Part shown: positions 40,404-63,059 of the stretch, one piece after another
How the letters are laid out: each line of letters opens with the position of its first letter
Position numbering within the stretch: the stretch's first letter is position 1
NCBI GenBank assembly: GCA_030647965.1
Contig: JAUSIT010000016.1
Span: 8,429 to 72,428, forward strand
Source: Nanobdellota archaeon
GTDB lineage: Archaea; Nanobdellota; Nanobdellia; Pacearchaeales; GW2011-AR1
Reading direction: 5' to 3'
DNA: 64,000 nucleotides
Program-made: the position numbers and the translations under genes
The notes under the pieces: generated by a model
What the model was told of the DNA's origin: nothing
Seen by the model: only the letters and a program-made list of their open reading frames with translations
The model's database searches: none

Positions 40404-41846
40404 ATGGAAAAAGAACCTGAAAAAATAAATTACAAAGAACTTGGGCTTAAATCAGGTCTGGAAATACATCAACAGTTAAATACTAATAAATTATTCTGTA
40501 ATTGCCCTTCTATTTTAAGAAATGATAATCCCCTTTTTACTATTAAAAGAAAATTAAACCCAGTTATTGGAGAAACAGGAGACATTGATATTGCTGCTGA
40601 ATATGAAAAATCCAAAAATAAAACTTTCAATTATGAAGTTTATGACACAAATTGTTTAGTTGAATTGGATGAAGAACCCCCTCATAATATAAATTTAGAT
40701 TCATTAAAAATTGCATTAGAAGTTGCTATTCTTACAAATTGCAAAATCTTTCCTGTGACTCAGATAATGAGAAAAACAGTTATTGATGGTTCAAATACTT
40801 CTGGTTTTCAGAGAACAGTTTTAATTGCACATGAGGGTTATATTGAAACATCTGAAGGAAGAGTTGGAATTGAAACAATAGGATTAGAAGAAGATGCAGC
40901 TAGAATTATTTCTTCAAAAGAAAATGAAACAACTTATAGATTAGATAGATTAGGAATACCTTTAATTGAAATTGCAACAAAGCCTGATTTAAAATCTCCT
41001 GAACAGATTAAAGAAGCTGCTTTAAAGATTGGAGAAATATTAAGAATGTGTGATGTTAAAAGAGGAATAGGAACAATTAGGCAAGATTTAAATATTTCAA
41101 TAAAAAATAGCAAAAGAGTTGAAATAAAAGGTTTTCAAGAGCCAAAAATTATGATCAAAACAGTTGAATTAGAAGTCAAAAGACAGCTTGAACTTGTAAA
41201 TCAGAGCAAGAGCATAAATGAAGTGAGAAAGTCTTTGCCAGATGGCTCTACTAGTTTTTTAAGGCCTATGCCGGGAGCAGCAAGAATGTATCCTGAAACA
41301 GATTGTGTTTTATTAAAGATATCAAGAGATTTAATTAATGAAGTTAAAAAAACACTTCCACAGCCAAAAGAAGATTTAACAGGTTATTTGAAAAAATACG
41401 GCTTAAATGACGAACTTATCAAGCTTTTAGTGCAAAATGAAAAAGTTGAAGAATTCAAGTATTTAGTTCAGGTTCAAAACTATCCTAATTTAATTGCAAA
41501 AATGCTTATTGTTTTTCCAAAAGAAATTGCTGTTAAGGATAAGAAAAATATTAATGAAATTGAAAAGTTGCTTAATCAAGATATATTGGAAGCTGTTTTA
41601 AATGAGATAAACAAAACTATTTCTGAAAATGATGTTAAAATTGTTCTTCAAAAAATTTCGGAAGGCAAAAAGCTTAAAGATGCTTTAACAAAAGAAAAAA
41701 TAGATATTTCTTCTGAAATTGAAAAGCTAATAAAAGAAAAACCTGGCTTAAGTATGAATGGTTATATGGGTTTAGTAATGGCTAAATTCAAAGGCCAGGT
41801 TTCTGGCAAAGAGATAATGGATGAGCTGAAAAAAAGGATGAAATAG
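40404..41846 (+). CDS. gatE: Glu-tRNA(Gln) amidotransferase subunit E
   Basis: 'YKELGLKSGLEIHQQLNTNKLFCNCPS', 'RKLNPVIGETGDIDIAAEYE' typical of GatE rather than GatB. Confidence 0.75.
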   Translation: MEKEPEKINYKELGLKSGLEIHQQLNTNKLFCNCPSILRNDNPLFTIKRKLNPVIGETGDIDIAAEYEKSKNKTFNYEVYDTNCLVELDEEPPHNINLDSLKIALEVAILTNCKIFPVTQIMRKTVIDGSNTSGFQRTVLIAHEGYIETSEGRVGIETIGLEEDAARIISSKENETTYRLDRLGIPLIEIATKPDLKSPEQIKEAALKIGEILRMCDVKRGIGTIRQDLNISIKNSKRVEIKGFQEPKIMIKTVELEVKRQLELVNQSKSINEVRKSLPDGSTSFLRPMPGAARMYPETDCVLLKISRDLINEVKKTLPQPKEDLTGYLKKYGLNDELIKLLVQNEKVEEFKYLVQVQNYPNLIAKMLIVFPKEIAVKDKKNINEIEKLLNQDILEAVLNEINKTISENDVKIVLQKISEGKKLKDALTKEKIDISSEIEKLIKEKPGLSMNGYMGLVMAKFKGQVSGKEIMDELKKRMK

Positions 41847-41982
41847 CTTCCAATTAGGTGAAAAACCTGAAAAACCCTTGATAAATCCTTAAAATCACTT
41901 CTGATTACCCCTAATTCTTAGTAGTTTAGATGGTTATTTATGTGTCATTTCTAAAAGGTAACAAAACAAAAGGTTTATAAAG

Positions 41983-42435
41983 TTGTTATTCCATAGTTAT
42001 AACATGTTAAAAGATGATATTTCAGTGAGTGAAAAAACCTTGCTTAGCATGGAATACCCTGAAAAACCTTTTGAAGACGATTCTTTTCAAATGGGAAAAG
42101 AAAAAGTTGAATCATTAAGAGAGCTTGTTGTTGAAATTGAAGAACTGATAAAAAATAGAGAAAGTTTAAGCAAAAGCATATGTAATGAAGGTGAAAAAAT
42201 GAAAACAGACTTATCTAATTTTATAAATGAAAATAAATTTCAGGACCCACAAAATTCCAAAGAAAGAAGTGAATTAAGAAAAAAACAAATTGAAATTTCT
42301 GAATTACAATTAAAAGAAAGAGTAGAATGCTGGAAAGATATTGCATTGCTTAAAAGAGAATTAAGAGAACATGTTAAAGATTTGAAAGACAGGGAGGATA
42401 GAGTTAATAGTTTAAATAAACTCTGGGAAAATTAA
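41983..42435 (+). CDS. coiled-coil protein (first gene of FHA/kinase/ATPase operon)
   Basis: Charged heptad-rich sequence. Confidence 0.35.
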   Translation: MLFHSYNMLKDDISVSEKTLLSMEYPEKPFEDDSFQMGKEKVESLRELVVEIEELIKNRESLSKSICNEGEKMKTDLSNFINENKFQDPQNSKERSELRKKQIEISELQLKERVECWKDIALLKRELREHVKDLKDREDRVNSLNKLWEN

Positions 42436-42440
42436 ATAAA

Positions 42441-42896
42441 ATGATACAAGCATATTTAACAGACACTAATGCAAAAAGAACATACGATTTATCTAGATTA
42501 TTATTATCTAAATCTAATGATATAATCACAATAGGAAGACAAAATCAAAGAAATGATATTGTTTTAGGAAAAGATGATTTTGATGAATTAATTAGTAATA
42601 AAGAATTATTAAAAGAATTAATAAGTGTTTCTAGAATGCATGCTTCTTTAGAATATAAATTTCAAACATATACTCCTGATTGCAGTGGATTTTTTATGAG
42701 AGATGCTCATTCAACATTTGGAACAAAAATCTTAAGAGGGAAGGGATTAATTTCAATTTCTCAAAATGAAGGAATAACTTTAGCTAATGTTCCTGTTCCA
42801 ATAATTCTTGATAAAAATAAAATATTATTACAAAATGAAGACCAAATATTTTTTGCACAGTATGGTCCTGTTATTTACAAGGAGGCACAAATATGA
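42441..42896 (+). CDS. FHA domain protein
   Basis: 'ITIGRQNQRNDIVLGKD...VSRMHASLEY...DAHSTFGTKI' canonical FHA motifs. Confidence 0.7.
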   Translation: MIQAYLTDTNAKRTYDLSRLLLSKSNDIITIGRQNQRNDIVLGKDDFDELISNKELLKELISVSRMHASLEYKFQTYTPDCSGFFMRDAHSTFGTKILRGKGLISISQNEGITLANVPVPIILDKNKILLQNEDQIFFAQYGPVIYKEAQI

Positions 42897-43372
42897 AAAC
42901 TTTTGAACAAGAATTTGATTATGCAAGACCATTAGGTAGTGGAATTCATGGAAGCGTATATCAAATTTCAGATATTCATGCAGCAAAATTTTATGATGAA
43001 CAAAACGTTTCAGATCCTGATAAAGAATGTAAAATAGCAAAAGAATTATATAAAAATAATATAAATGTTCCTAAACCTGAAGGCGTTTTTAAAATAGATC
43101 TTAAAGCAAAGAATACTTTTCTTTCACAAAAACATGCTTTTGTTATGGAATATTTACCAGGATATATTTTAGAAGATGTACCTAGTAATGAAATAAAAAG
43201 ACTTGGATTAAATGAATTAGCTGAAATAGAATTAGAAAAAGCTAGAAAATTAGGATTTTTGACAATAGATTCTGAGCCTCGTAGAAATAATTCTAATCAA
43301 ATCTGGTGCCCAGACAGAAATAGAATTTACATAATTGATTTTGTAAATTGGGTAGATGGGAGGAAACTATGA
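42893..43372 (+). CDS. atypical small protein kinase-like protein (Bud32/RIO/Kdo-kinase-like fold), paralog 1
   Basis: Gly loop 'LGSGIHGSVYQ', 'AAKFY', hinge 'VMEYLPG', 'IYIIDF'. Confidence 0.45.
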   Translation: MKTFEQEFDYARPLGSGIHGSVYQISDIHAAKFYDEQNVSDPDKECKIAKELYKNNINVPKPEGVFKIDLKAKNTFLSQKHAFVMEYLPGYILEDVPSNEIKRLGLNELAEIELEKARKLGFLTIDSEPRRNNSNQIWCPDRNRIYIIDFVNWVDGRKL

Positions 43373-43911
43373 TACAAACATTTAGACAAGAATGGGATAG
43401 TGCAAAGAAACTTGCAAGAGAAGTATATCAAATTTCAGACAATCATATAGCAAAAACTTCAAAATTAATGTCAAACAAATTTATAGAACATCTAAAAAGA
43501 GAATATAGAATTACAAAAGAATTATATGAACAAGGAATAAATGTTCCTAAACCAGAAGGCATCTTTAATGTAAATCTTACATTTTTTGATTCAGTACATA
43601 AAGATTACGTATCTTTTACAAAACCTACTTTGGTAATGGAATATATCTCAGGTAAGAGTTTTGAACAAGTATCTGCGGAAACAGGATCTCAAATTGATGA
43701 AATGAATAAATTATGGAAATTAGCTTTTGAAGAGATAAACAAAGCTGAAAAATTAGGATTTGTTCCAGTAGATAGTGGTGAAGTAAATGATGGCAATCAA
43801 ATATGGTGTCCTGAAAGAAACAAAGTTTATTTGATTGATTTTGAATATTGGGGATACCATCCTCCTAAATTCTCACAAAAATTAAAATATTTTTGGAGGA
43901 ATTTAATATGA
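43348..43911 (+). CDS. atypical small protein kinase-like protein, paralog 2
   Basis: Parallels the upstream gene: 'ELYEQGINVPKPEGIF', 'VMEYISG', 'KLGFVPVDSGEVNDGNQIWCPERNKVYLIDF'. Confidence 0.45.
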   Translation: MGRWEETMIQTFRQEWDSAKKLAREVYQISDNHIAKTSKLMSNKFIEHLKREYRITKELYEQGINVPKPEGIFNVNLTFFDSVHKDYVSFTKPTLVMEYISGKSFEQVSAETGSQIDEMNKLWKLAFEEINKAEKLGFVPVDSGEVNDGNQIWCPERNKVYLIDFEYWGYHPPKFSQKLKYFWRNLI

Positions 43912-45836
43912 TACAAAAATTATCACCTGAAGAAATATGCATGAAGCTAAAACCTATATTTGGAAAAAAGATTGATGATATTTATTTAAGATATGCAATG
44001 GCTGACAGAGAAGAAAAAGAAGAAATACTTCAAGTTTTAAATACACTTTATAATAAAAATTTATCTCAATTACTTGATAATAAAATATTGTTAGAACCTC
44101 CATCTAGACTTTTAATGGATGGTGAATATCCTTTATCAATGATTAGCTATGCTGACAAACAATTATATCCATTTGCTTTAAGAGAAAAAGATTGGATAAG
44201 ACATGTATGTATTAGTGGAATGAGTGGAAGCGGAAAAACAACTTTAGCATTTCATATAATTAATAATTTTATAAAACACGAAAAGCCATTTTTAATTTTT
44301 GACTGGAAAAAGAGCTTTAGACCATTGATGTTAATTGACAATGAAATAATGTGTTTTACTGTTGGAAAAGATTCTGTAAGCAATTTATTTAAAGTAAATT
44401 TAAACAAGCCACCAAAAGATGTTTCTCCAAAAGAATGGATTAGTGTTTTATGTGACTTGCTTGCAGAAAGCTTTTTTGTTTCATTTGGTGTTCATAAAAT
44501 TTTAGTTGAAACTTTAGATGATGCATTTAAAGAATGGGGAGTTTACAATGGTTCTGAAAACTATCCAACATGGAATAATATTAAATGGTATTTAGAAGAA
44601 AGATCACATAAGGCAAAAGGAAGAGAAGCAACATGGTATGAAAGTGCATTAAGAATTGCATCTGTTCTTACATTTGGAGATTTTGGAAAAGTATGTAATT
44701 ACAAAGGCGAAGACAGCTTTTCAATTGAAGAATTATTAAATAAAAAAGTAATATTTGAATTAAACTCTCTTGGAAGTGTAGAGAAAAAGTTCTTTTGTGA
44801 ATTTTTGTTAACTTATATATACAAATTAAAAAAAGCAAGTCAGTCAAATTCAAATGGAAATTTTGAAAATGCAATTATAGTTGATGAAGCTCATAATATT
44901 TTCTTAAAAGGGGAGACACATTTTACAAAAGAATCTGTTACAGATATGATTTACAGAGAAATAAGAGAGTATGGAACAAGTTTAGTATGTCTTGACCAGC
45001 ATATATCAAAATTAAGTGATACTGTTAAAGGAAATAGTGCTTGTCATATTGCATTTCAACAGCAATTACCTCAAGATCTTTGGGATATTGGCGAATTAAT
45101 GCAATTAAAAGACAGAAAAAATTATTTTTCAATGCTTCCTGTTGGCTCTGCAATTGTAAGATTATCTGAAAGATTTAATTCTCCTTTTTTAATTGAAGTT
45201 CCTTCTGTTAAATTAAAAGATAAAGATCTAAATGACGAAGATATTAAATCAAAAATGAAATTTATATTTTCTGCAAGAGAAACTTTGAATAAAAAAGATG
45301 AGTTTCATAACTTAGTTGTTGGAAAAATTGAACAAAGATTTGAAAAAATAGATAAAAATGAAGTTTTAGATAAAGCTTTACAGGAAAATTTAGAAGTTGA
45401 GAAAGAAGCAATAAAAGGTCCATTTTCAAAAACTCAAAACAAAATATACGAAGCTGTTTTAGAAAGACTTTCAGAAGGAAAAGGACTAGCTGAAATTGAA
45501 AAAGAAATTGAAAAAGAAAGAATGCACTATGGATATAGTGTAAATGATATTTTAGAAGTTATAAACTATGTATTTGAAAACCAGTTCAGAGATATTATAG
45601 CTCAAAGAACAGAAATTGTAAAGCCAAGTGAAATGAATTTGCAAAATAAATTCTTAGATTATTTAAAACAAAACCCAGAACATAACAAAAGCACTGTTGA
45701 AATCTACAAAATTTTAGGCTTTTCAACAAGAAAGGGAAACATAATCAAAGATGAATTGCTTGAAAAGAACTTAATTAGAATTGAAGAGCAAAAAAACAAA
45801 ACAGGATGGAAGAAAATTATCACATTAAACAATTAA
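43893..45836 (+). CDS. HerA/FtsK/VirB4-like P-loop ATPase (DUF87-like)
   Basis: Walker A 'GMSGSGKTT', Walker B 'IIVDEAHNIF'. Confidence 0.55.
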   Translation: MEEFNMIQKLSPEEICMKLKPIFGKKIDDIYLRYAMADREEKEEILQVLNTLYNKNLSQLLDNKILLEPPSRLLMDGEYPLSMISYADKQLYPFALREKDWIRHVCISGMSGSGKTTLAFHIINNFIKHEKPFLIFDWKKSFRPLMLIDNEIMCFTVGKDSVSNLFKVNLNKPPKDVSPKEWISVLCDLLAESFFVSFGVHKILVETLDDAFKEWGVYNGSENYPTWNNIKWYLEERSHKAKGREATWYESALRIASVLTFGDFGKVCNYKGEDSFSIEELLNKKVIFELNSLGSVEKKFFCEFLLTYIYKLKKASQSNSNGNFENAIIVDEAHNIFLKGETHFTKESVTDMIYREIREYGTSLVCLDQHISKLSDTVKGNSACHIAFQQQLPQDLWDIGELMQLKDRKNYFSMLPVGSAIVRLSERFNSPFLIEVPSVKLKDKDLNDEDIKSKMKFIFSARETLNKKDEFHNLVVGKIEQRFEKIDKNEVLDKALQENLEVEKEAIKGPFSKTQNKIYEAVLERLSEGKGLAEIEKEIEKERMHYGYSVNDILEVINYVFENQFRDIIAQRTEIVKPSEMNLQNKFLDYLKQNPEHNKSTVEIYKILGFSTRKGNIIKDELLEKNLIRIEEQKNKTGWKKIITLNN

Positions 45837-46020
45837 CTATTACAAATCATAATCAAACAAATATAAATTAATAACAACGCAGCATAAAGACAACTTTTAA
45901 CAACACAATATAGAAATAACACAGACGCACAAGAGACAAACAGACAATAAAAATCTGAAATACCCTGCGAAACAAGATAAAAACAAGAAAGAAAGGAGAA
46001 ATATCTCAAAAGAAGATTAG

Positions 46021-46148
46021 TTTTAACTAGATTTAACCTTAATATATTCCTGAAATACCTATTTAATAGACTTCTAAATAGATTTTGAAATTGAAATAGC
46101 TTAATTTAAAACAAAAAGAATTGAAATAGCTTTTAACTGGGTTTAACA
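46021..46148. repeat. paired direct repeats at the compositional boundary
   Basis: ttttaactagatttaacc (46021-46038) / ttttaactgggtttaac (46131-46147); ttgaaatagctt at 46091 and 46121; preceded by AC-rich T-poor stretch 45840-45990. Confidence 0.5.
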
Positions 46149-46177: not shown

Positions 46178-46435
46178 ATGTATTATATCGCTGGGATATT
46201 TGTTCTTTTCGCATCTATCTTTCTCGGAGGAGAAAAAGAGCTAAAGATGCAGGTATTAATTGGCTGGGGAATTGGGATTATTGGCATGGCAATATGGTTC
46301 ATCGTAGGGGGGATTGAAAAGTTGGTAAAAGAAATCTCTGAACTAAGAAAAGAAATCTCCAAACCGAAGAAGGAAGAAGCTCCCCCGGAAACTGCCAGAA
46401 CTGACGAAGGTTCCCAAGCCAGCATGGTAAGATAA
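46178..46435 (+). CDS. small membrane protein
   Basis: SD gaaaggagagg; two TM helices. Confidence 0.45.
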   Translation: MYYIAGIFVLFASIFLGGEKELKMQVLIGWGIGIIGMAIWFIVGGIEKLVKEISELRKEISKPKKEEAPPETARTDEGSQASMVR

Positions 46436-46455
46436 AATTCTCTACGAAGATGATT

Positions 46456-46494
46456 AAGGGCCTTATTGCATTCAAAAGGGTGAGGCCCTTTAAT
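46456..46494 (+). terminator. intrinsic terminator-like hairpin
   Basis: aagggcct...aggccctt stem followed by taattt. Confidence 0.45.
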
Positions 46495-46522
46495 TTGAAA
46501 ATAATTATTTACCCCATATAAA
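46495..46522 (+). promoter_or_regulatory. sigma70-like promoter (TTGAAA ... TATAAA)
   Basis: ttgaaaataattatttaccccatataaa. Confidence 0.4.
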
Positions 46523-46562
46523 TAGCAATTCATAAATTGAAATATCTCTGAAAGGGGGAATT

Positions 46563-46742
46563 ATGTTAACTATAATAGTGATTTTTTCAGCATTACTTTT
46601 GAATTCATTTAAAGTATGGGGGGGTTTATGGGTATTCTTTTGGTTTATTAGAAAAGAAGGGACAATAATTTTTCCAATTATTAATCTTTATATGTGGGTA
46701 TGTTGGTATATGATTATTTTTACTCTTTTTTCAATACATTAA
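46563..46742 (+). CDS. small membrane peptide (59 aa)
   Basis: SD gaaagggggaattatg; hydrophobic. Confidence 0.35.
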   Translation: MLTIIVIFSALLLNSFKVWGGLWVFFWFIRKEGTIIFPIINLYMWVCWYMIIFTLFSIH

Positions 46743-46761
46743 CTTTTTCAAAGGAGGGAAT

Positions 46762-46905
46762 ATGTTCTTCTCATTTGTAATTCTGCCTCCCCCTGAAGTT
46801 AGCGACCCTGGAGCATATTTGGGGTGGATGATAATAAACTTCTTTTTGTGGTATTATATTCTTAATGGGATTGTAAACTTTAGTACCATGAAAAGAAAAA
46901 AGTGA
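46762..46905 (+). CDS. small membrane peptide (47 aa)
   Basis: SD caaaggagggaatatg. Confidence 0.3.
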   Translation: MFFSFVILPPPEVSDPGAYLGWMIINFFLWYYILNGIVNFSTMKRKK

Positions 46906-46951
46906 TAAAAATTAGCAAATGAGTAATTAAATCACAATCAATCTTTTTCAC

Positions 46952-47197
46952 ATGGAGAGTGTCATGAACCGCATAATATTAATTATCTTAGGCATTTTTC
47001 TTTTATCTTTTGGAATTGCATTGCTCTGCGATGTTAGTTATAATAATGAAGTTGAATCCCTGGACTTCTATTTGCTATCTGGAATGGTGCATTTTCACAA
47101 CTTTAACATAGGAGTTATTTATATTATCTGCGGGCTCATCGCACTTGGAGGCCTTTTCACTATTCGCTTTTCGAAATGCATTGCATACTTAATGTAA
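46952..47197 (+). CDS. small membrane protein
   Basis: two TM helices. Confidence 0.4.
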   Translation: MESVMNRIILIILGIFLLSFGIALLCDVSYNNEVESLDFYLLSGMVHFHNFNIGVIYIICGLIALGGLFTIRFSKCIAYLM

Positions 47198-47249
47198 TTT
47201 TTTATAGCAAACAAACAAAACAAACAACAATCAAAAAACGAGGTTTGTC

Positions 47250-47636
47250 ATGAAAAATCGGAGAGATTATATCTTTGGAATTTGTTTTGCTTGGGTAGTC
47301 TTAATCATGGTAATCTTTAGTGCCACAGATAGTTCCAAGAATTTCATCGGCTCTAATTTATTGGGTTACAGCACTTGCCCAAACTGTGGGGATAGCTGGT
47401 GGTGGAAAGAATCTAAGAGCATAACCTTTGATTCAAATATTAATGCAATCATCTTTGAAGAAGGAGTGATGATTTGCAAAGAGTGTGTTTTAAATCCCAA
47501 AACCCTTGATGAAAACAGGATTTGCAAAAATCTTTTGAAATGGAGCTGGGATGAAGAAAAAGTTCAGAAAGTCAAAGAGGCAATAATTCAATACAAAGAT
47601 TCTTCATTACAAGAACAAAATAAAATGTTATTCTAA
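47250..47636 (+). CDS. membrane-anchored zinc-ribbon protein
   Basis: 'CPNCGDSWWW...CKECV'. Confidence 0.45.
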   Translation: MKNRRDYIFGICFAWVVLIMVIFSATDSSKNFIGSNLLGYSTCPNCGDSWWWKESKSITFDSNINAIIFEEGVMICKECVLNPKTLDENRICKNLLKWSWDEEKVQKVKEAIIQYKDSSLQEQNKMLF

Positions 47637-47706
47637 CTGGAAGAATAATTTAGCAGTGAGCAAAGAGCAAATAATCAAAAACAACTTTTTTCTCTGGAGG
47701 TATATC

Positions 47707-48192
47707 ATGAATGAATATGTAAACATCTTCATTCTCGCAACAATCTGCGGGTCAATTGCTTACACCATGACTGAATCAGGGATTTTCGAGCCGTACAGAA
47801 TTTTTTGTAAAAACGTCTGCAAAAAGCTCGGAGAACTTTCCAGTTGCGGATATTGCACTGGTCACTGGGTGGCTTTCTTTTTGGTTGCAGTTTACCAACC
47901 CAGAATTGTTCACAGCAGTTTCTGGCTTCTGGATTATTTCCTGACTGCGATTCTTATTGCATGGATTTCTGGATTGTGGTGGAGATTTCATGTATTTGTC
48001 GGCCAGGTGATTGTAGCCCTGAAAGAAAAAAACAGAGTCTCTAAGGAAGAAAGACTTGCAATGATGGCATTATTTGAAGAGGGTAAAAATACAATCCCTC
48101 AAAGTAATGAGATCCCCGCAATTAAAAAGCAAAGAGCAAATAATATTATACCTTTTGAAAGAACAAACATTATTCCATTTAGAAGGGGGTGA
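47707..48192 (+). CDS. membrane protein
   Basis: SD ctggaggtatatcatg; ORF-track start 47656 lies inside promoter-like motif. Confidence 0.45.
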   Translation: MNEYVNIFILATICGSIAYTMTESGIFEPYRIFCKNVCKKLGELSSCGYCTGHWVAFFLVAVYQPRIVHSSFWLLDYFLTAILIAWISGLWWRFHVFVGQVIVALKEKNRVSKEERLAMMALFEEGKNTIPQSNEIPAIKKQRANNIIPFERTNIIPFRRG

Positions 48193-48197
48193 AAATA

Positions 48198-48371
48198 ATG
48201 TGGAAAATTAGACTAATATCTTCCCAGGAAATATTTGAATCACTTTCAGATGAAGAACCTGTTCAAGACACAATGAGCGGGGTATTATGCATTTCTTGGA
48301 CAAGTATTCAGGGAAAACCCTACACCCTTTACCCCGGGGTCGTTGCCACAGTTATCATCAAGGGAGAATAA
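48198..48371 (+). CDS. small protein (57 aa)
   Basis: SD agaagggggtgaaaataatg. Confidence 0.3.
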   Translation: MWKIRLISSQEIFESLSDEEPVQDTMSGVLCISWTSIQGKPYTLYPGVVATVIIKGE

Positions 48372-48390
48372 CTATTCAACATCTTCGCCA

Positions 48391-48426
48391 AGAGAGGCAT
48401 TATATTTCTATTATATAGTGCCTCTT
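48391..48426. repeat. 37-nt palindromic hairpin repeat, copy 1
   Basis: agagaggcattatatttctattatatagtgcctctt. Confidence 0.7.
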
Positions 48427-48481
48427 AAATTAAAAAAGCATTGAGCAATTAAACAAACAACTTTTTTCCAGGAGGCATGTC

Positions 48482-48844
48482 ATGTTAATCTTTGGAATTC
48501 TTTTGGCACTCGTTATCCTCGGGGTAGTAGTGTATCGTTTTGCACCAAAGGATGTTGGGAGCACTATCATGGTCCTCTCTTTGGGCATGATTCTTGTAAC
48601 TATGTTAACTATCCCACTCGCCAGAAATCAGTATATCCAAGAAATTTATGGTTTCAGGGATTTTAGCGAATTCTGCAAAGAAACTGGGGCCATAGGGTTT
48701 AAGCAGTCAGAAAATTATGACGAGTTTATGCAACAAGTCAAAGAAAAAAATATCTGGCTTGTCAGAACCCAACATTTTAATTCTGGCATCTGGTTTGATC
48801 TCTGGATTCCGGATGAAGTTGATTTGCTTGAACAGATTAAGTAA
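48482..48844 (+). CDS. membrane protein
   Basis: SD ccaggaggcatgtcatg. Confidence 0.45.
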   Translation: MLIFGILLALVILGVVVYRFAPKDVGSTIMVLSLGMILVTMLTIPLARNQYIQEIYGFRDFSEFCKETGAIGFKQSENYDEFMQQVKEKNIWLVRTQHFNSGIWFDLWIPDEVDLLEQIK

Positions 48845-49131
48845 CTGAAAACAATTTCACAAACAAAAACTTTTCACAATCTAAAACAAAAAAAGGAGTA
48901 GGCCATGAAAGCAATGAAATATGTTTTTATTATGGCCAGCGTTATTATCATTATTGCCGGAGCAATAGTGATGGTTATTCATCATCTCAAAAGCATAGCA
49001 GACAATCTTAACTGGATGCTCTTTGGCGATGGTGCTGGCATGAATGTTGTTCGCAAATAAATCGTTTACAAAAAACAATAATATACTAAACAAAAAAAAC
49101 TTTTCACAAAAACAATTTTCGGAGGTGTGTC

Positions 49132-49566
49132 ATGTCAAGAATGTTGGTTCTTATTATGGTTGCGCTTTTTGCGACCTGTGTTTTTAACGGCTGTGGAGAA
49201 TCTAAATATATTTACGGAGTTGTTTTAAATGAATATGGGACCATTGTCAAAAGGCAAAACTTTATTGAACGTTCTGAAGGAGCATTATTTGGAAACGATT
49301 CAATAAAGCTAAATGATCCTACCTATGTAATTCAATTTCAGGTGGTTTCTGTAAGAAGTTCTAAAAAAATATATGATTCCGGCCCTTACCTTGGAAAAAT
49401 TTATACTTTTCAAATTATGGGAGGGAGATATAATAATTTAGAAGCATTAAATATTGCAATACACAAAGGAACAAAAATCAGAATTCCCCAGAGCGAATTT
49501 AATTTTTATTTAAATGGTAATGTAGGCAAAATATTTGATTCAAATGTTAGTGTATTAGATGAATAA
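49132..49566 (+). CDS. lipoprotein
   Basis: 'LFATCVFNGCGES' lipobox-like; SD ggaggtg. Confidence 0.5.
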   Translation: MSRMLVLIMVALFATCVFNGCGESKYIYGVVLNEYGTIVKRQNFIERSEGALFGNDSIKLNDPTYVIQFQVVSVRSSKKIYDSGPYLGKIYTFQIMGGRYNNLEALNIAIHKGTKIRIPQSEFNFYLNGNVGKIFDSNVSVLDE

Positions 49567-49835
49567 TCCAATCTGAAAAAGAAAGGAGGTGAGAATAATG
49601 TTGCTAGGAACAATACTACAAATCGGAGGAGCAATAATTATGATTGTTAGTGTAATTGGTTTGAGCATTACACTATACAATAACCATAAATCAAACAAGC
49701 ATCCTGAAAGGAGGTGATCTAATCTATCTGTTTTTATTTTACAAATCTTAAAACGAAAGGAGATAAACAACAAACAAATGATTTACCTGATTCATCACTA
49801 TTTTCAAACTTCAATCATCAACAAGGAGAAATTCT

Positions 49836-50075
49836 GTGAAAGCTCTTATGATTGCTTTGCCTATCTGGGCGTGGATTATTGTTACGCTCATCGCTGTTTT
49901 TATTCTCTGGAACATTCTCGCCATCATCGGTGCGATCATCGGCCTGTTGTTCTGGGTCATCGGTTCGCTCATCCATTCCATCATCACTCTCGGCATTATC
50001 GGCCTGATTATTTGGGGCGGATACAAAGTCTGGAACTGGGTGAAAAACACCATCGGCAAGGAAACCATTTCGTAA
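49836..50075 (+). CDS. small membrane protein (GTG start)
   Basis: SD caaggagaaattctGTG; three hydrophobic helices. Confidence 0.45.
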   Translation: MKALMIALPIWAWIIVTLIAVFILWNILAIIGAIIGLLFWVIGSLIHSIITLGIIGLIIWGGYKVWNWVKNTIGKETIS

Positions 50076-50353
50076 TCTTCACACCGCCGCGAGAGAGCCT
50101 GATGATTAATTCTGAGCATTGGGCTCTCTTGCTTTTTTCAAAAAAGAAAAAGAAACGAGCAGTACATTTACAAAAAACAAAAGAGGCAATAAAATGTTAA
50201 GCTTGAAGAAAAAGATTGAAGCCAGAATCAGACTCCGTGTTTTTCTGGTAGCAAAATATGGAAAGCGCTGGTACAAACGCCCGCAATTTTTAAGATTAAT
50301 TAATAAGCGGACCAAGTGAAAACAATTTTACAATTTGAAGGGAGGTGAAAAAA

Positions 50354-50731
50354 ATGTCAAAGATGAATATCAGTACATCTCTACTGCTAATCCTTGCCAC
50401 AATGACTTTAATTCTTCTTGGTGCCGGATTTATTGAGCTGATAAAAATCGCAATATTATTAACTATAACCATTGCTTTTGTTCATGGCATAGTTAATTTT
50501 AAAATAAATTTCGGCAAAAAAGCATTGATCACATCGATTAGCAATAAAGTTACCATCTGTTTAAGTTTGGCAATACTATTGTTTTTCTTTGGAGGGCCAT
50601 TAGTGTTGCCTGTTAAATTATTTATATTAGTCTTTTTTGGAGAATTTGCAATATATGGAATCTGGATTTATGTAAAAAATAAATTCTTCAACAAGACTAT
50701 CCCGCCGACAACTCCTCCTGCATCAGCGTAA
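50354..50731 (+). CDS. membrane protein
   Basis: SD gggaggtgaaaaaaATG (track start 50345 is GTG within SD). Confidence 0.45.
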   Translation: MSKMNISTSLLLILATMTLILLGAGFIELIKIAILLTITIAFVHGIVNFKINFGKKALITSISNKVTICLSLAILLFFFGGPLVLPVKLFILVFFGEFAIYGIWIYVKNKFFNKTIPPTTPPASA

Positions 50732-50742
50732 CATCTTCGTCA

Positions 50743-50779
50743 AGAGAGGCATTATAGTTCTATTATATAGTGCCTCTCT
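50743..50779. repeat. 37-nt palindromic hairpin repeat, copy 2
   Basis: agagaggcattatagttctattatatagtgcctctct. Confidence 0.7.
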
Positions 50780-50956
50780 AAATTGAAAACAATTTAACTT
50801 TTGAAGGGAGGTGAACAATATGCGACGATGTTTCTACTCCAACCATAGAATGAGATAACCTACCTCAGGCGGTCCCCCGACATAATCCAAAGAGATTACA
50901 AGTCGGGACGCGTTACAAAAAAAGTTTTACAAAAATCGTTCTTGTTATGATTTTCA

Positions 50957-51000
50957 AAAGAGGGTTTGATATCTGAAATATTGAGCCCTCTTTAATTTTT
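50957..51000 (+). terminator. Rho-independent terminator (8-bp GC stem + T-run)
   Basis: aaagaggg...ccctcttt aattttt. Confidence 0.5.
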
Positions 51001-51027
51001 GAAAATAATTATTTGTTTTAATATAGA
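50999..51027 (+). promoter_or_regulatory. sigma70-like promoter TTGAAA-N17-TATAGA
   Basis: ttgaaaataattatttgttttaatataga; near-identical copy at 55023. Confidence 0.55.
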
Positions 51028-51084
51028 AAAAAATTAGCAGTGAGCAAACAATTTTTATAGGAGAAAAAAGAAAAGAGGTGAAAA

Positions 51085-51354
51085 ATGAAAACAATTTTTG
51101 TAGTACTTCTCCTCATTGCAGCAATTATTTTTCTAATAGTTGATTGCAATGAAAAAAGAAAAATCAGAAAGATTCAAAGGAGAAAGATCATGACCCAAAC
51201 CAAAGACGACCTCAGCATGACATCGTTTGGCATTCCTTACAGTCAACTCGATGATGAAAGGAGAAAACACATCGATCTGCTTTTTGCTCGACAGATTTAT
51301 CAAGAAGTCAAACCCCCACGAATTAACCTTAAGAAAGAAAGAGGGATGCAATGA
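51085..51354 (+). CDS. small membrane-anchored protein
   Basis: SD agaggtgaaaaATG. Confidence 0.45.
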   Translation: MKTIFVVLLLIAAIIFLIVDCNEKRKIRKIQRRKIMTQTKDDLSMTSFGIPYSQLDDERRKHIDLLFARQIYQEVKPPRINLKKERGMQ

Positions 51355-52079
51355 TAACTCGCAAAGTACAGATTATCGTCGCGCTGTTTTCTATTCTCTT
51401 TGTTTTGACTGCCCTTTCCATTGTTGGCCCTTGCAGCAAGGCTAACGGTGAAAACGCCAAGACTGAAACTCCGATTACTGCAAGCTGGGACAACACCTAT
51501 TCCAGCAAGTATGTATTCTGGGGAATCCAATTCAGCAACAAGGATGTCTATCAATCGCTCATCACTATTAACAAAGGGCATTCCACACTCTTTGTTTTCA
51601 GCAACAGGGATTTCGAAACCTCGACGTGGAATGAACACGATGTGTTTTTCGATTACACAACTCCTATCAACAAAATGGTAAATATGTCAGCGGGCTACAA
51701 CTATTACAACTGCCGGCTCGGCGACTGGGAAAGCTATAACGAAATTTACATTGGCGCCAGTTTCAATACTTTCCTCTCGCCGGCAATCAGCTATCACAAT
51801 ATTTTCGGCTTTGAAAACGGAAATTACTTCGAGGCCAGTGTATCCAAAAGCTTCCAGATCAACGACAAGATTACTCTTTTATCTTCTGGAAAACTTGGAT
51901 ACAACGACAAAGCATTCAGAACAGCCACGGATTTTAGCCATACTGAATGGGGAATATCTGCACCGATTACATATCTTCCCCATTTCATAATCTCACCGTT
52001 TGCAAAGTATTCATTTGCCCTGGCTGATGATCTCAAGAATGTTTTCTACGGCGGTGCGACTGCAAGTTACAAGTTCTGA
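51351..52079 (+). CDS. secreted beta-barrel-like protein ending in aromatic residue (OMP-like)
   Basis: Signal anchor, alternating amphipathic strands, C-terminal ...ASYKF. Confidence 0.4.
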   Translation: MITRKVQIIVALFSILFVLTALSIVGPCSKANGENAKTETPITASWDNTYSSKYVFWGIQFSNKDVYQSLITINKGHSTLFVFSNRDFETSTWNEHDVFFDYTTPINKMVNMSAGYNYYNCRLGDWESYNEIYIGASFNTFLSPAISYHNIFGFENGNYFEASVSKSFQINDKITLLSSGKLGYNDKAFRTATDFSHTEWGISAPITYLPHFIISPFAKYSFALADDLKNVFYGGATASYKF

Positions 52080-52096
52080 TTCTTTTACGGCGGACA

Positions 52097-52133
52097 AGAG
52101 AGGCATTATAGTTCTATTATATAGTGCCTCTCT
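52097..52133. repeat. 37-nt palindromic hairpin repeat, copy 3
   Basis: agagaggcattatagttctattatatagtgcctctct. Confidence 0.7.
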
Positions 52134-52198
52134 GAATTTTAGCAAACAGCAAAGAGCAAACAACATCACAAACAAACTTTTTCACGAGGAGAATCATC

Positions 52199-52684
52199 AT
52201 GTTTGGAAAATTCACATCTTTTGTGATCGCACTTATAATCACTTCCATTGTGGCGATCGGGATTTATCACAACAAAATCAATTATAATACTATTTTCAAC
52301 GAAGAAGAAATTTCGTCAAGCATTGAAGAGCCCACAAACGAATTAATTACTTTTAATATTCCTGTAATATTTGCTGATGGGGCTCAAGGACAAGTCAAAG
52401 GAATATTTTATTATCATTATTCAAATTTATTTGATTCATCAGAAATTAAAGTAATTAAAGATCGTAAAATGTTCCTCCTGAATGAAATCCACAAGGCATT
52501 ATGGATTATTGCAGTAAATTTTACTGCACCAATAACTCTTGATGAAAAAAAGAAATATGTTTCAGAGGTAATTTCTACAATCAACGAAAATCCAAGATTC
52601 AAAGATTCTAATCTCAAAATCTGGTTTATTGATTTTGGTCAAATTAAGCCCGGAGTTTTTGATCAAGGTCTTTTAATTCAGTAA
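52199..52684 (+). CDS. membrane-anchored hypothetical protein
   Basis: SD cacgaggagaatcatcATG. Confidence 0.45.
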   Translation: MFGKFTSFVIALIITSIVAIGIYHNKINYNTIFNEEEISSSIEEPTNELITFNIPVIFADGAQGQVKGIFYYHYSNLFDSSEIKVIKDRKMFLLNEIHKALWIIAVNFTAPITLDEKKKYVSEVISTINENPRFKDSNLKIWFIDFGQIKPGVFDQGLLIQ

Positions 52685-52768
52685 CCTTCCAGCGTTCAGA
52701 ATTGAGCAAAAACTTTTCTAAGAAAGGGGAACAATATGAAAATCCAAAAAAGAAGGGAGGTGAAAAAC

Positions 52769-53251
52769 ATGAAAAGATTTTTCTCATTCGCAACAATCTT
52801 GATAACATTGTTGCTTAGTTTGATTACGGGCTGTAGTGAAAATAATGAATCAAATTATAATAACTTCAGCTCAGATTCAGACTCAACAAAAACAGGGACC
52901 TCAATAGATTCGCTCAAAACCCCTGTTTCAATACTGACTGGAAAGATTGTCCAAATTCAAACAGGCAGTTTAATTGTCTATACAGGAAATGGATATGTCT
53001 TCCATGAATTCAAATATGTAATGGTCGAAGGAACTGATGGGGGATTTTATATTCTTATTTATCCCTATGCTGTGAAAGCAATCTGGGAAAAAGAAGCAAC
53101 TATAAAATTCAGGCCGTTACATAACGGGCAAATTGATTCAAACACCTTTATCAATCTTTTTCTATTCTCCCGCAATGATGCTTCATTCATTAATCATCTG
53201 CCAATCGAAGCAGATGGCATCATTATCAACAACGGAATTCAATACAAGTAA
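52769..53251 (+). CDS. lipoprotein
   Basis: 'LLSLITGCSENNE'; preceded by conserved 35-nt leader at 52733. Confidence 0.5.
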   Translation: MKRFFSFATILITLLLSLITGCSENNESNYNNFSSDSDSTKTGTSIDSLKTPVSILTGKIVQIQTGSLIVYTGNGYVFHEFKYVMVEGTDGGFYILIYPYAVKAIWEKEATIKFRPLHNGQIDSNTFINLFLFSRNDASFINHLPIEADGIIINNGIQYK

Positions 53252-53347
53252 CAGATTTTACAATCAACAGATTTTACAATCAACAGATTTTAAATTGGAG
53301 AAGGAGGAATTTATGAAAATCCAAAAACGAAGGGAGGTGAACAAATT

Positions 53348-53584
53348 ATGTGGATACTCCTCGAATGGTGTTTGGTAATCACAGTCGCAGTGTTTATCAT
53401 AAGCCAGATAATCCTCCCGCCCTTTATTAACAAGCGTTTTTTCTGGATTCTTCGGAAAAAAGAGAAAAAGCTCGATGCTGTTGGAAACGAGCTGATTGAT
53501 GCGCAGGTTGATTTAGAAGTGGCTGAAACTCGTGCGGCAGTCAAGAAAGTTCTGGATAAAACCAGTAAATTGAATCACAAGTAA
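53348..53584 (+). CDS. small membrane protein
   Basis: preceded by conserved leader at 53313. Confidence 0.45.
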   Translation: MWILLEWCLVITVAVFIISQIILPPFINKRFFWILRKKEKKLDAVGNELIDAQVDLEVAETRAAVKKVLDKTSKLNHK

Positions 53585-53643
53585 CAAAAATCTATTCATT
53601 CTTTTTCATTCACTTTTTTTCATATCTATCAAGGAGCTTTTCA

Positions 53644-54966
53644 ATGAATACTCCCACTCAGTATCGCGGGCTCAACCCCAAGGCTATTCTCCTCTCGATT
53701 CTCGGAGTAATCGCCCTCATCATCATGTTTTTCGCGTCCAAGACCATTTTCGAGAATGTCGACGCAGGGGAAATCGTCATCATCCAGGATCCGATTGATG
53801 GAGACCTTCATTTCTATACTGCCCAGGGTATGAAATTCCAGAAATTCGGCAAGGTCACCAAGTATCAGAAATCTTTCCAGTACTGGTTCAGTGTTGCGAC
53901 CGACCAGGGGAAAAAGCTTGACCAGTCCATCAAAATCCGCTACAACGACGGTGGTCATGCCCAAATCTCTGGAAGTGTGAGATGCGATCTTCCAATGGAT
54001 AATGAACATCTCACGTTGATTCATACCAAACTCGGCTCCCAAGTGGCACTTGAACACGAACTCGTTCGGCCGGTTTATGAAAAAGCCATTTATATGACTG
54101 GTCCGCTCATGTCTTCAAAAGAAAGCTATGCTGAAAAACGAAACATGATGATTTCGTACATCGAGGACCAGGCCAACTTAGGAGTTTATAAAACCGTCTC
54201 CAAAGAAGTAAAAGGAATTGACCCCATCACTGACGTCGAAAAAACTGTCACCCAGGTTGAGCTTGTGAAAGCTGACAACGCTCCTGGTAAAATCGCCCGT
54301 GAAGAAATTTCTCCTTTACAAACTTTTGGAGTCAAGGCCTATAACCTCAGTATAAATTCCATTACCTACGACGGCACTGTTGAAGCCCAGATCTCTTCCC
54401 AACAGAAAGCTATCATGGAAGTTCAAACGGCAATGGCCGAGGCCAAGAAAGCTGAACAGCGGGCGATCACTGTGACCAAAGAAGGTGAAGCCAATGCTGC
54501 CAAGTCCAAGTGGGAGCAGGAAGTCATCAAGGCCAAGATGGTTACTGAAGCTCAGCAGAAACTTGAAGTTGCTGAACTTGACCGCAAAGCGGCCGAACAA
54601 ACCAAACAACAGCAAATTCTTCTGGGCCAGGGTGAAGCTGAACGGAAGCGGCTGGTCATGTCTGCTGATGGTGCCCTCGAGAAAAAGCTCGAGACATATG
54701 CAGATGTCATGAAAACATTTGCTACTGAATTCGCTAAGCAAAAATGGGTGCCTGAAACTCTTCTTATGACTGGCGGAGAATCTGGTGGCAAGCAGTACAG
54801 CCCTGTAATGGATATGATGAATATGTTCATGGTCAAGACTGCTCGTGACCTCAATCTCGATATGACCATTCCTGCCGGACGAACAGTCAGAAGCCCTAGT
54901 TCAACCGACACATCTGAAGCGAAATCCGTGCCTGCATCTGGGTCAAGACCTTCCTCGAAGAAGTAA
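53644..54966 (+). CDS. SPFH/band-7 (prohibitin/flotillin-like) domain protein
   Basis: N-terminal TM, SPFH core, C-terminal Ala/Glu/Lys coiled coil; SD aaggagc. Confidence 0.55.
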   Translation: MNTPTQYRGLNPKAILLSILGVIALIIMFFASKTIFENVDAGEIVIIQDPIDGDLHFYTAQGMKFQKFGKVTKYQKSFQYWFSVATDQGKKLDQSIKIRYNDGGHAQISGSVRCDLPMDNEHLTLIHTKLGSQVALEHELVRPVYEKAIYMTGPLMSSKESYAEKRNMMISYIEDQANLGVYKTVSKEVKGIDPITDVEKTVTQVELVKADNAPGKIAREEISPLQTFGVKAYNLSINSITYDGTVEAQISSQQKAIMEVQTAMAEAKKAEQRAITVTKEGEANAAKSKWEQEVIKAKMVTEAQQKLEVAELDRKAAEQTKQQQILLGQGEAERKRLVMSADGALEKKLETYADVMKTFATEFAKQKWVPETLLMTGGESGGKQYSPVMDMMNMFMVKTARDLNLDMTIPAGRTVRSPSSTDTSEAKSVPASGSRPSSKK

Positions 54967-54982
54967 CACTCTGCATCGTCAA

Positions 54983-55019
54983 AGAGAGGCATTATAGTTC
55001 TATTATATAGTGCCTCTCT
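54983..55019. repeat. 37-nt palindromic hairpin repeat, copy 4
   Basis: agagaggcattatagttctattatatagtgcctctct. Confidence 0.7.
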
Positions 55020-55022
55020 GAT

Positions 55023-55051
55023 TTGAAAATAATTATTTGTTTTAATATAAA
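55023..55051 (+). promoter_or_regulatory. sigma70-like promoter TTGAAA-N17-TATAAA
   Basis: ttgaaaataattatttgttttaatataaa. Confidence 0.55.
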
Positions 55052-55106
55052 TAGAATTTAGCAATGAGCAAAAACTTTTAAAAACAATCAAAAAACGAGG
55101 CGTGTC

Positions 55107-55634
55107 ATGAAAAAGATTATTATTACTCAAGTGATTACGACAATCATTTTTCTGTCAGTATTTTTTATTGCTTCATATCTGACAAATAGTGCTATGTCGA
55201 TTTTTGCTGCACTAGCTATTGCAGGAGTAGCAATCAGTTTTGCAAGTGTTGCAATATCTCCATCTAGTAAAATAGAAGATGCTGCACTTCTTAGCGTCAT
55301 AGTAGGACTTACTGCTATGAGCGCTGCTCTTGCTTGCAGATATCCTGTTCATGATGATACATTTATCCTAACTGTTTTAATTCTTATTCTTTTAATAACA
55401 ATTTTAACAGCTTTTGGAATAAAAGCTATTGCTGAAAAACTCAATATTAATAATGAAAGGATATTATTTACTAGTTATTTAATGCAGTTTTCTGTAATAT
55501 TTTTTCCCATGCTAAACGCTGAAGTTGATTTAATATTGAAAACAATAATAATATTAATCACTCTTGCAGGTATTGGATGGATTCTGTTCAAATATCTTAA
55601 TGGTGATTTTAGCAAAAAACATGAAGGGAGGTGA
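55107..55634 (+). CDS. polytopic membrane protein
   Basis: 5-6 TM helices. Confidence 0.45.
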   Translation: MKKIIITQVITTIIFLSVFFIASYLTNSAMSIFAALAIAGVAISFASVAISPSSKIEDAALLSVIVGLTAMSAALACRYPVHDDTFILTVLILILLITILTAFGIKAIAEKLNINNERILFTSYLMQFSVIFFPMLNAEVDLILKTIIILITLAGIGWILFKYLNGDFSKKHEGR

Positions 55635-55772
55635 AAAATATGCTAGGTATAATGGTTCCAATATGCATTCTTCTTTGGATTCTCGCAGCGTTGCTGATAC
55701 TACTATGACGCTAACCCCTCAAGAAAGGAGAAAATAGTTATGAAAATCCGAAAAAGGGGGGAGGTGAATAAT

Positions 55773-55964
55773 ATGAATCTGGACGTAAACTCATGTCTTA
55801 TCGGAGTAATAATAACAGTAGCAGTTTACACTATATTGATTATCTTTTTTGCCAAGGATAATATCAACAATAACATTATCAAATTCAAAACCAAATGTCC
55901 GAGTTGTGGTCATGAAATCACCGAAGACAGAAAGGTAGAAGTGGGATTAAAAATTTCTGAATAA
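55773..55964 (+). CDS. small membrane-anchored zinc-ribbon protein
   Basis: 'CPSCGHEI'; preceded by conserved leader at 55739. Confidence 0.4.
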   Translation: MNLDVNSCLIGVIITVAVYTILIIFFAKDNINNNIIKFKTKCPSCGHEITEDRKVEVGLKISE

Positions 55965-56046
55965 CAATCAGAAAAGTAAGAAATTATTTTCACGAAAATA
56001 AAACATCAACATTTTTTCTTTAAGGAGGTGAATTTATTTGAGTGAC

Positions 56047-56316: not shown

Positions 56317-56347
56317 CACAACAATCTAAAACGTGAAAGGAAAGAAC

Positions 56348-57037: not shown

Positions 57038-57069
57038 TAAGACAGCTTGCTGTCTAGAAAGGTTACAAA

Positions 57070-60722: not shown

Positions 60723-60723
60723 T

Positions 60724-63048: not shown

Positions 63049-63059
63049 CATCTGGCTCC

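Follow-up and report, generated by a model that had tools for sequence, protein, structure and literature searches.

We analysed a 64,000-nt stretch of the genome of a Nanobdellota archaeon (contig JAUSIT010000016.1; this whole stretch is referred to below as the window), and focused on an operon on its + strand, at 42004-45836, that encodes a putative coiled-coil (CC) protein, a stand-alone FHA-domain protein, two small kinase-like proteins (mini-kinases KIN1 and KIN2) and a P-loop ATPase. An earlier note on this DNA had described these five same-strand open reading frames (ORFs) as a tightly coupled operon, a description that we could confirm: all five ORFs are present, the FHA/KIN1, KIN1/KIN2 and KIN2/ATPase junctions each consist of an ATGA stop/start overlap, and 5 nt separate the CC stop codon from the FHA start. 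Moreover, GGAGG precedes the start of each of KIN1, KIN2 and ATPase, the latter two starts being ATG codons at 43369 and 43908. The encoded proteins measure 143 (CC), 151 (FHA), 159 (KIN1), 180 (KIN2) and 642 aa (ATPase), and a transmembrane segment was predicted in none of them. The GC content of all five genes (0.26-0.28) is the same as that of their neighbours, in line with a window-wide value of 27% up to about 46 kb, and the gene upstream of the operon is GatB/E-like.

The first gene, CC, occupies 42004..42435 on the + strand when read from an ATG, and an alternative reading begins at a TTG at 41983. Since homologues start at the position of the ATG, 42004 is the most likely start codon. 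A third candidate, the start of MGKEK at 42091, was dropped, as most homologues have GTT, GTA or ATT at the aligned position, none of them a start codon. A TATA-like box, TTTATAAA, can be read on the + strand at about 41974-41981 and may serve as the promoter.

The conserved coiled-coil/ATPase pair

Relatives of the locus were sought by scanning one genome per GTDB species, and 80 loci were kept, sharing 49-74% identity over the best aligned segment. Nearly all of them are labelled Nanoarchaeota, Woesearchaeota, Pacearchaeota or simply "archaeon", with a few others. Counts of CC, FHA and kinase homologues refer below to a set of 83 loci, those of the slot between CC and ATPase to 78 non-redundant loci, and those of the sequence motif to 75 loci.

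A relative of the ATPase is present in at least 201 GTDB species representatives of the Nanoarchaeota, and a CC homologue lies just upstream of the ATPase gene in 81 of the 83 loci. These two genes are the only members of the operon that travel together; the five do not form one conserved system. Across 15 genomes that share synteny, the median pairwise identity was 72% for the ATPase and 70% for CC; the reference proteins of the same genomes gave 77% (L10e and L35Ae) and 67% (a methyltransferase). Because the pair is conserved across loci at a rate like that of ribosomal proteins, we regard it as the core, vertically inherited module of the locus. Judged by their sequences, CC and the ATPase constitute a conserved and so far uncharacterised unit of DPANN Nanoarchaeota; the literature searched, a limited collection, held no description of the ATPase family, of the CC partner and its slot, or of the mini-kinase arrays presented below.

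Two syntenic settings of the module recur. In the first, L35Ae, L10e and a THUMP-type methyltransferase lie upstream of it. In the second (for example L028:5492-9553 and about 28 similar loci, with L029 and L030 for the downstream part), the upstream genes are a HAD hydrolase, a XerA-like tyrosine recombinase, a small recombinase-like protein, DUF4389 and, on the opposite strand, S9-L13-L18e; then come CC, the ATPase and a downstream island, followed by RpoD-S11-S4-S13, again on the opposite strand. The classical archaeal gene string reads S13-S4-S11-RpoD-L18e-L13-S9, and in this second setting the module and its island sit inverted within it. A XerA-like tyrosine recombinase was encoded 2.5-8 kb upstream (mostly 3-4 kb) in 29 of the 57 loci that have at least 5 kb of upstream sequence; no recombinase or integrase was found in the window. 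Likewise, neither the window nor the 78 loci yielded a member of the NurA family; the neighbours of the ATPase are CC and the slot genes.

As for the two proteins themselves, CC matched no family in a Pfam search. It presumably forms a coiled coil: charged residues make up 47% of the protein, helical amphipathic periodicity is evident at 3.4-3.6 residues (p = 0.002 versus shuffles), and the only helix breakers are G63 and P82. The C-terminal half is the part conserved in the homologue alignment.

The ATPase (43908..45836, + strand) had previously been read as a 647-aa P-loop protein of the HerA/VirB4 type, and this assignment stood, with the length refined to 642 aa. The protein matches Pfam DUF87/HerA (E 7e-8) as well as generic P-loop profiles, and its Walker A (GMSGSGKT, aa 104-111) and Walker B (VDEAH, aa 325-329) motifs are invariant in 26 homologues, as are R350/R353 and Q364. 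The signature of the HerA/FtsK class comprises Walker A and B motifs, an Arg finger just before core strand 4 and a sensor-1 Gln at the end of strand 4 (PMC10853773). The ATPase bears this signature, since its Walker motifs, R350/R353 and Q364 match the published list; in an AlphaFold2 model, strand 357-362 precedes Q364.

The same model, built with 26 homologues (mean pLDDT 79), divides the protein into an N-domain (aa 1-98), a core (aa 99-440) with a helical insert (aa 174-263), a linker modelled at low confidence (around aa 472-503), a helical bundle (aa 508-567) and a winged helix (aa 575-642). It resembles solved members of the HerA/FtsK class, with structural comparison figures of 28.0 for the C-domain of DndH/DptH (7es4), 25.0 for the C-domain of VirB4 (4ag5), 21.0 for HerA (4d2i), 20.4 for TrwB, 14-17 for the defence ATPases HerA-DUF, TdpA and HerA-Sir2, 11.9 for FtsK and 10-12 for EccC/EssC; the last ~70 residues gave 9-10 with MarR/ArsR winged helices. 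A sequence-only PDB search with the ATPase profile returned P-loop noise only. According to the model, the protein is a soluble ring ATPase of the HerA/VirB4/DndH class, with a helical insert and a C-terminal DNA-binding winged helix. The recognition helix of this winged helix, S-x-R-K-G-N/T, is nearly invariant among the homologues. FtsK/SpoIIIE proteins proper begin with a membrane domain and most resemble the FtsK alpha/beta motor; neither holds for this ATPase.

Two further origins of the ATPase were considered and rejected. For a provirus or packaging ATPase, viral structures matched weakly (TM 0.3-0.44) and tblastn against phage records gave 2 marginal matches; for a conjugative plasmid backbone, the plasmid matches share 21-28% identity, cover the ATPase core only and, in the three inspected, lie in ~1000-aa proteins. 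The nearest annotated bacterial relatives of the core, at 25-28% identity, come from plasmids of Photobacterium (L084), Embleya (L085) and Acinetobacter (L086). There they form the C-terminal domains of ~1000-aa proteins that adjoin DUF2357, Csm6, WYL or NACHT genes, a setting that looks like a defence island.

The variable slot, the FHA protein and the mini-kinases

The space between CC and the ATPase is a slot of changing content. It is empty, with the two genes adjacent, in 33 of the 78 non-redundant loci (42%), and is filled in the remaining 45 by one to six co-oriented ORFs each. These ORFs, 89 in total, belong to about 65 families, mostly confined to a single locus and almost devoid of Pfam matches. 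Slot genes always share the orientation of the ATPase and abut its start. In the window, the slot holds FHA, KIN1 and KIN2.

The first of these genes (42441..42896, + strand) is a lineage-specific one. That it encodes an FHA domain, as noted earlier, was supported by a match to Pfam PF00498 (E 1.9e-6, 28.6 bits, gathering cut-off 20.7) and by the presence of the GR (G31-R32) and SxxH (SRMH, 63-66) residues. The turn reads S-T-F-G-T (91-95), with Phe where the Asn of the NG turn is usual, and the protein carries a helical insertion. The protein occurs only in the window: no homologue was present in the 83 related loci, and a word-based search of 5.8 billion proteins returned only the protein itself.

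Kinases were found in the slot of two of the 78 other loci, L022 and L046; these are mutual best matches and distinct from the pair in the window. Sequence comparison thus points to recruitment of kinases to the slot in two separate sub-lineages, one represented by the window and the other by L022/L046. At L046 (8284-9996), a mini-kinase occupies the last place before the ATPase, and two isochorismatase-like genes stand ahead of it in the slot. We consider the FHA protein and the mini-kinases of the window to be a rare, lineage-specific accessory, which probably regulates the CC/ATPase machine.

KIN1 (42893..43372, + strand) and KIN2 (43369..43911, + strand) are tandem paralogues that share 40-47% identity, depending on the aligner. 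KIN1 has a Gly-rich loop and the catalytic residues K32, E45, D126, N135 and D149, and terminates just after IDF, the equivalent of DFG. In KIN2 the Gly-rich loop is deleted, and alignments show the K/E/D/N/D set to be retained. The residues characteristic of protein-kinase-like (ePK/ELK) enzymes, i.e., the Lys, the alpha-C Glu, the Asp, the Asn and the DFG Asp, are thus in place. KIN1 is most likely a catalytically complete kinase, and KIN2, having lost the Gly-rich loop, probably a regulatory or weak paralogue. The kinase fold match is clear, though sequence matches to RIO1, APH and Bud32 are weak. KIN2 matches Pfam RIO1 at E 1.2e-4, with 22.1 bits against a cut-off of 22 and over profile positions 13-78 only, and KIN1 gave no RIO1 Pfam match; for comparison, a genuine RIO1 scores 181 bits. 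Matches of the two kinases to APH, Bud32, KdkA and MAD6 profiles had E-values of 0.003-0.02, and a PDB profile match to RIO2 (E 0.003) aligned the hinge, the catalytic loop and the IDF.

The suggestion that these are minimal kinases of the Bud32/RIO type is therefore sound at the level of fold, and does not extend to membership of either family. A full RIO domain (PF01163) is not present, the proteins ending 5-30 residues after the IDF, and scores for Bud32 of the KEOPS complex are 12-17 bits against NCBIfam cut-offs of 125-372. Metabolic small-molecule kinases, which had been named, along with a conjugative ATPase, as what would undo the earlier interpretation, do not fit either, as the fold is that of protein kinases and not of metabolic kinases.

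A word-based search with KIN1 returned only a self-match, whereas an exhaustive profile search gave 438 cluster representatives (50% identity) at E <= 1e-3, 158 of them at E <= 1e-10. The best 150 relatives are all 141-250 aa long. In an alignment of 40 members, K32, N135 and D149 never vary and conservation of E45 and D126 reaches 90% or more; the proteins end just after the DFG-equivalent IDF-x-x-W. One relative is located inside a ribosomal protein operon; another lies between gyrB and an S28e/L7Ae/Kae1 block, with a TsaD/Kae1 gene 1.3 kb off on the opposite strand. A metagenome scan uncovered 25 mini-kinase loci, many with tandem arrays of 3-7 paralogues: six copies at L103 (4758-8219), adjoining a canonical RIO1 (8596-9300, E 1.9e-53) and a KH-domain gene, seven at L104 (4486-8103), five at L112 (5495-8124) and further tandem paralogues at L105 (5408-7034). 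Other neighbours include FmrO rRNA methyltransferases (four loci), exosome subunits, TFS and Tmk/ThyX. No match to CC, the ATPase or FHA was found in these 25 loci, and the idea of a recurrent FHA/mini-kinase pairing was dropped, since FHA is not among the families seen at least twice in 86 kinase neighbours. As the kinases mostly occur elsewhere, in arrays without the ATPase, they appear to be an independent DPANN family, derived from RIO and rich in paralogues, whose link to the ATPase is facultative.

The TGAAATACCY motif and the downstream island

A second conserved feature of the module resides in the DNA that follows it. In the 500 nt after the ATPase stop codon, the 8-mer GAAATACC occurs at 3.75 per kb, versus 0.069 per kb elsewhere in the 75 loci, a 54-fold enrichment. 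At least one forward copy is present in 51 of the 75 loci and two to five copies in 40, at spacings of about 10-11, 63 or 95-106 nt. Copies are oriented, with 120 forward and 19 reverse, and no other nucleotide conservation was found around the motif in this intergenic region.

In the window, the only two exact copies of the full motif, TGAAATACCY, in all 64 kb lie at 45956 and 46051 on the + strand. Together with one-mismatch copies at 46092 and 46122 (+) they form a cluster, 45956..46131, just 3' of the ATPase stop codon, which we propose as a set of binding or loading sites. One-mismatch copies also occur on the + strand ahead of the operon, in intergenic sequence (41839, 41859 and 41868, spanning 41839..41877) and, as an adjacent pair, TGGAATACCC and TGAAAAACCT, in the 5' coding part of CC (42050 and 42060, spanning 42050..42069). 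The 5' part of CC is enriched for the motif in homologues as well (1.9 per kb), and there it is read in two frames, as GAA-ATA-CCn (E-I-P) or as GGA-AAT-ACC-TGG (G-N-T-W). Because the motif is preserved in CC in both reading frames, the constraint would seem to act on the DNA rather than on the protein.

The winged helix of the ATPase is the candidate reader of this motif: its invariant recognition helix fits a conserved target, and we infer that it binds the repeats. Two or more direct copies are present in 36 of the 53 loci of the RKGN clade, versus 4 of 21 in the RKGT clade (Fisher p = 2e-4), which more often has GRAATACCT together with an inverted copy.

Beyond the motif cluster begins an island of small, co-oriented genes, mostly for membrane or secreted proteins, that extends from 46178 to 64000 and runs past the end of the window. 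Its GC content is 0.34-0.45, versus 0.27 upstream. In the relatives, protein-family conservation after the ATPase is almost nil for about 7 kb. Within the first 6 kb on either side in about 80 loci, a hydrophobic segment is found in 61% of downstream versus 24% of upstream ORFs, single-locus families account for 76% versus 27%, and the ATPase strand is shared by 82% versus 53%. GC rises by more than 5 points across the ATPase/island junction in 21 of 53 loci. The GC jump at 46 kb does not stem from a chimeric assembly, because three independent assemblies have the same gene order across the junction and the rise recurs in these 21 loci.

Repeated 13-mers are enriched downstream (16 loci versus 1, Wilcoxon p = 0.001). 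Those inspected closely are lineage-specific intergenic hairpins: in the window, five or six copies with a 14-bp stem, at 48378-48453, 50730-50805, 52084-52159, 54970-55045 and 63274-63349, plus a divergent copy at 63046-63108; at L022 (13335-20618) there are 12 copies with a 17-bp stem. When the two repeat sets were folded, G·U wobbles proved to preserve the pairing, but solely on the coding strand. This marks the hairpins as RNA-level elements (for termination, processing or stability) and not recombination sites. The same coding-strand bias ruled out an integron-like cassette array with attC or lox-like sites, and no integrase was found in the window.

Few island proteins have Pfam matches, among them surface-type PKD, CBM96 and disaggregatase repeats. 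The islands of relatives encode bacterial-type TraT, outer-membrane beta-barrel, sigma-70 region 4 and N-methyl pilin domains. OmpA, TraT and the other bacterial domains suggest that genes in the islands were acquired from bacteria. The OmpA domain (E 2.5e-19), typical of the bacterial cell envelope, is encoded in the window at 58229-61584, as a C-terminal fusion to the solute-binding protein of an ABC transporter. Elsewhere in the window, at 21762-21868, Rfam detected a 107-nt tRNA (54 bits) that ARAGORN had missed, probably an intron-containing archaeal tRNA.

A possible DNA translocase, its alternatives and known systems

Taken together, these results lead us to propose, at about an even chance, that the operon encodes a sequence-guided DNA-translocase module which, in this lineage, has gained a translationally coupled, lineage-specific phospho-signalling add-on. 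The ATPase and its CC partner would assemble as a ring, presumably a hexamer, and the winged helix would target it to the oriented TGAAATACCY repeats, found at the 5' end of the operon and, more densely, after the stop codon of the ATPase. Lying at the edge of the hypervariable island, the repeats would act as a loading point from which double-stranded DNA is pumped directionally. KIN1 would phosphorylate a threonine on a component of the module, and the FHA protein, as phospho-reader, would dock there and thereby gate the assembly or activity of the pump, with KIN2 as a degenerate paralogue. For this genome, a phospho-regulated translocase, as envisaged in the earlier note, is the most plausible reading; as a conserved five-gene unit it is not.

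Several observations weigh against this proposal. The FHA protein and the kinases are absent from the module in 75 of the 78 other loci and, as the module works without them there, it cannot depend on them. There is no phosphatase, nor was a phospho-acceptor identified. A conserved membrane anchor or pore partner was not found, so that transfer of DNA across the envelope is unsupported. Furthermore, the difference between the RKGN and RKGT clades may merely reflect phylogeny, and the motif could be a promoter or an operator bound by another factor.

The add-on itself is open to another explanation, which we think rather unlikely: the slot could be an insertion-tolerant site in a well-expressed operon, and the FHA protein and kinases could be passengers that act elsewhere, e.g., in ribosome or RNA biogenesis. 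Such passengers would be in keeping with about 65 unrelated slot families across 45 loci, with mini-kinases found mainly near ribosomal, RIO1, KH, FmrO and exosome genes in arrays without the ATPase, and with the lack of recurrent FHA genes next to mini-kinases. They are harder to reconcile with the three consecutive ATGA overlaps that tie FHA, KIN1, KIN2 and ATPase together, with the constant orientation of slot genes and their abutment to the ATPase start, or with the entry of kinases into the slot in two separate sub-lineages; in addition, an FHA reader beside kinases implies a local protein substrate.

A bolder extension of the translocase proposal, and one that we advance only tentatively given its low probability, is that the CC/ATPase pair, the TGAAATACCY sites and the island make up an unrecognised DNA-mobilisation system found across this branch of Nanoarchaeota, whose chromosomal, sequence-guided pump for double-stranded DNA would load at the repeat cluster, on the border of a sink for foreign DNA, and move the adjoining DNA out of the cell or into it. 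This would account for the hypervariable, GC-higher downstream segment, rich in bacterial-type genes, and the slot genes, here FHA and two mini-kinases, would then be interchangeable control modules.

The ATPase might instead be an ATP-dependent transcription regulator that translocates nothing, its winged helix binding TGAAATACCY operators, autoregulating the operon and controlling the island. The motif copies at the 5' end of the operon and in the roughly 320-nt intergenic region before the first island gene would suit this role, and the winged helix does resemble those of the MarR/ArsR type. Nevertheless, we hold it to be very unlikely, as the core has the full signature of a ring translocase (Arg finger, sensor-1 Q) with DNA pumps as its best structural matches, and such tight conservation would be unusual for the controller of a non-conserved island.

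A role in defence, which the earlier note had also raised, is likewise very unlikely. In a HerA-type system against phages or plasmids (Nezha, HerA-DUF4297, MADS or DndFGH), FHA and the kinases would be the sensors, and the slot genes would supply variable effectors. The pair, however, evolves at a ribosomal-protein rate with vertical synteny, next to ribosomal operons, across at least 201 species. Nuclease, methylase, Sir2 and other effector genes were looked for in the window and none was found, nor was any methyltransferase or nuclease found in the operon or its flanks. Matches to HerA and MADS models of PADLOC and NCBIfam were sub-threshold (mad8 43 bits in PADLOC, which sets no cut-off; MAD6 13-15 bits against 460), and the slot of the supposed effectors is empty in 42% of loci.

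Finally, an apparatus for secretion or conjugation (T4SS, Ced-like or T7SS-like), in which the ATPase energises export or import through island membrane proteins, is also very unlikely: an ATPase of the VirB4/CedB/CedD kind would be expected with a VirB4-type N-terminal domain or a transmembrane segment and with channel or pilin genes nearby, yet no transmembrane segment, conserved downstream family or T4SS Pfam match was found, the CedD model gave 56.5 bits against a cut-off of 600, marking the ATPase as no CedD member, no conjugation genes were found, as had been noted before, and the likeness to EssC of type VII secretion did not survive, since the protein lacks the N-terminally fused FHA domain, transmembrane helices and three tandem ATPase domains of EssC/EccC and compares with them at a structural figure of only 10-12.

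Returning to the proposed translocase module, its interest lies in the organisms as much as in the mechanism. Nanoarchaeota of the Woesearchaeota/Pacearchaeota type are abundant and uncultured, and their reduced genomes hold many conserved genes of unknown function. The present locus offers a testable anatomy of one such conserved unit, consisting of a ring ATPase with its CC partner, a candidate recognition motif, an accessory slot and, beside it, a hotspot of gene turnover with bacterial-type genes. Should the pump work on the DNA next to it, it would offer a mechanistic way into how these symbionts acquire genes; a role in chromosome handling would make it a lineage-specific FtsK counterpart.

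With respect to RIO1/RIO2, Bud32 and OspG/NleH/HopBF1, the kinases of the module stand apart in measuring only 140-220 aa, in lacking the RIO N-terminal helix and the C-lobe helices and in forming arrays of up to 7. These RIO-derived kinases, of roughly 160 aa, rank with OspG/NleH among the smallest kinase folds encountered in this work, and constitute a tractable target for biochemistry. Pairs of an archaeal Ser/Thr kinase and a stand-alone FHA reader have been described in Sulfolobus, as ArnA/ArnB-ArnC/ArnD and ST1565/ST0829 (PMC5007285). The Sulfolobus pairs involve full-length Hanks-type kinases and archaellum transcription, whereas those of the window are minimal, RIO-like and part of a putative translocase operon.

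For the ATPase, the closest structural match, DndH/DptH, which was compared along with the "HerA/FtsK capture" defence systems, differs in being a protein of ~1700 aa with nuclease, inactive methylase and target-recognition domains that functions in DndFGH, none of which is found here. VirB4, CedB and CedD, the ATPases of T4SS and of crenarchaeal DNA import, differ by the score given above (56.5 versus 600 bits), by the lack of transmembrane segments in the present ATPase and by the absence of CedA, VirB6 or VirB2 partner genes (PMC11868833). HerA, a helicase of DNA end resection that in HerA-NurA systems adjoins NurA and often Mre11/Rad50, is set apart by the absence of such neighbours, by a different N-domain, and by the helical insert and winged helix, which are not HerA features. 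FtsK, acting on KOPS with XerCD, is in principle similar to the module: it is a translocase whose C-terminal winged helix reads short oriented motifs, and a XerA-like recombinase lies upstream of the module in the 29 of 57 related loci mentioned above. TraB of Streptomyces, an FtsK-like conjugative translocase of double-stranded DNA which recognises 8-bp direct repeats in clt (PMC4447253), offers a likeness in layout: as modelled, the present locus likewise combines a single ring ATPase that carries C-terminal DNA recognition, here in the form of a winged helix, with short direct repeats clustered beside its own gene.

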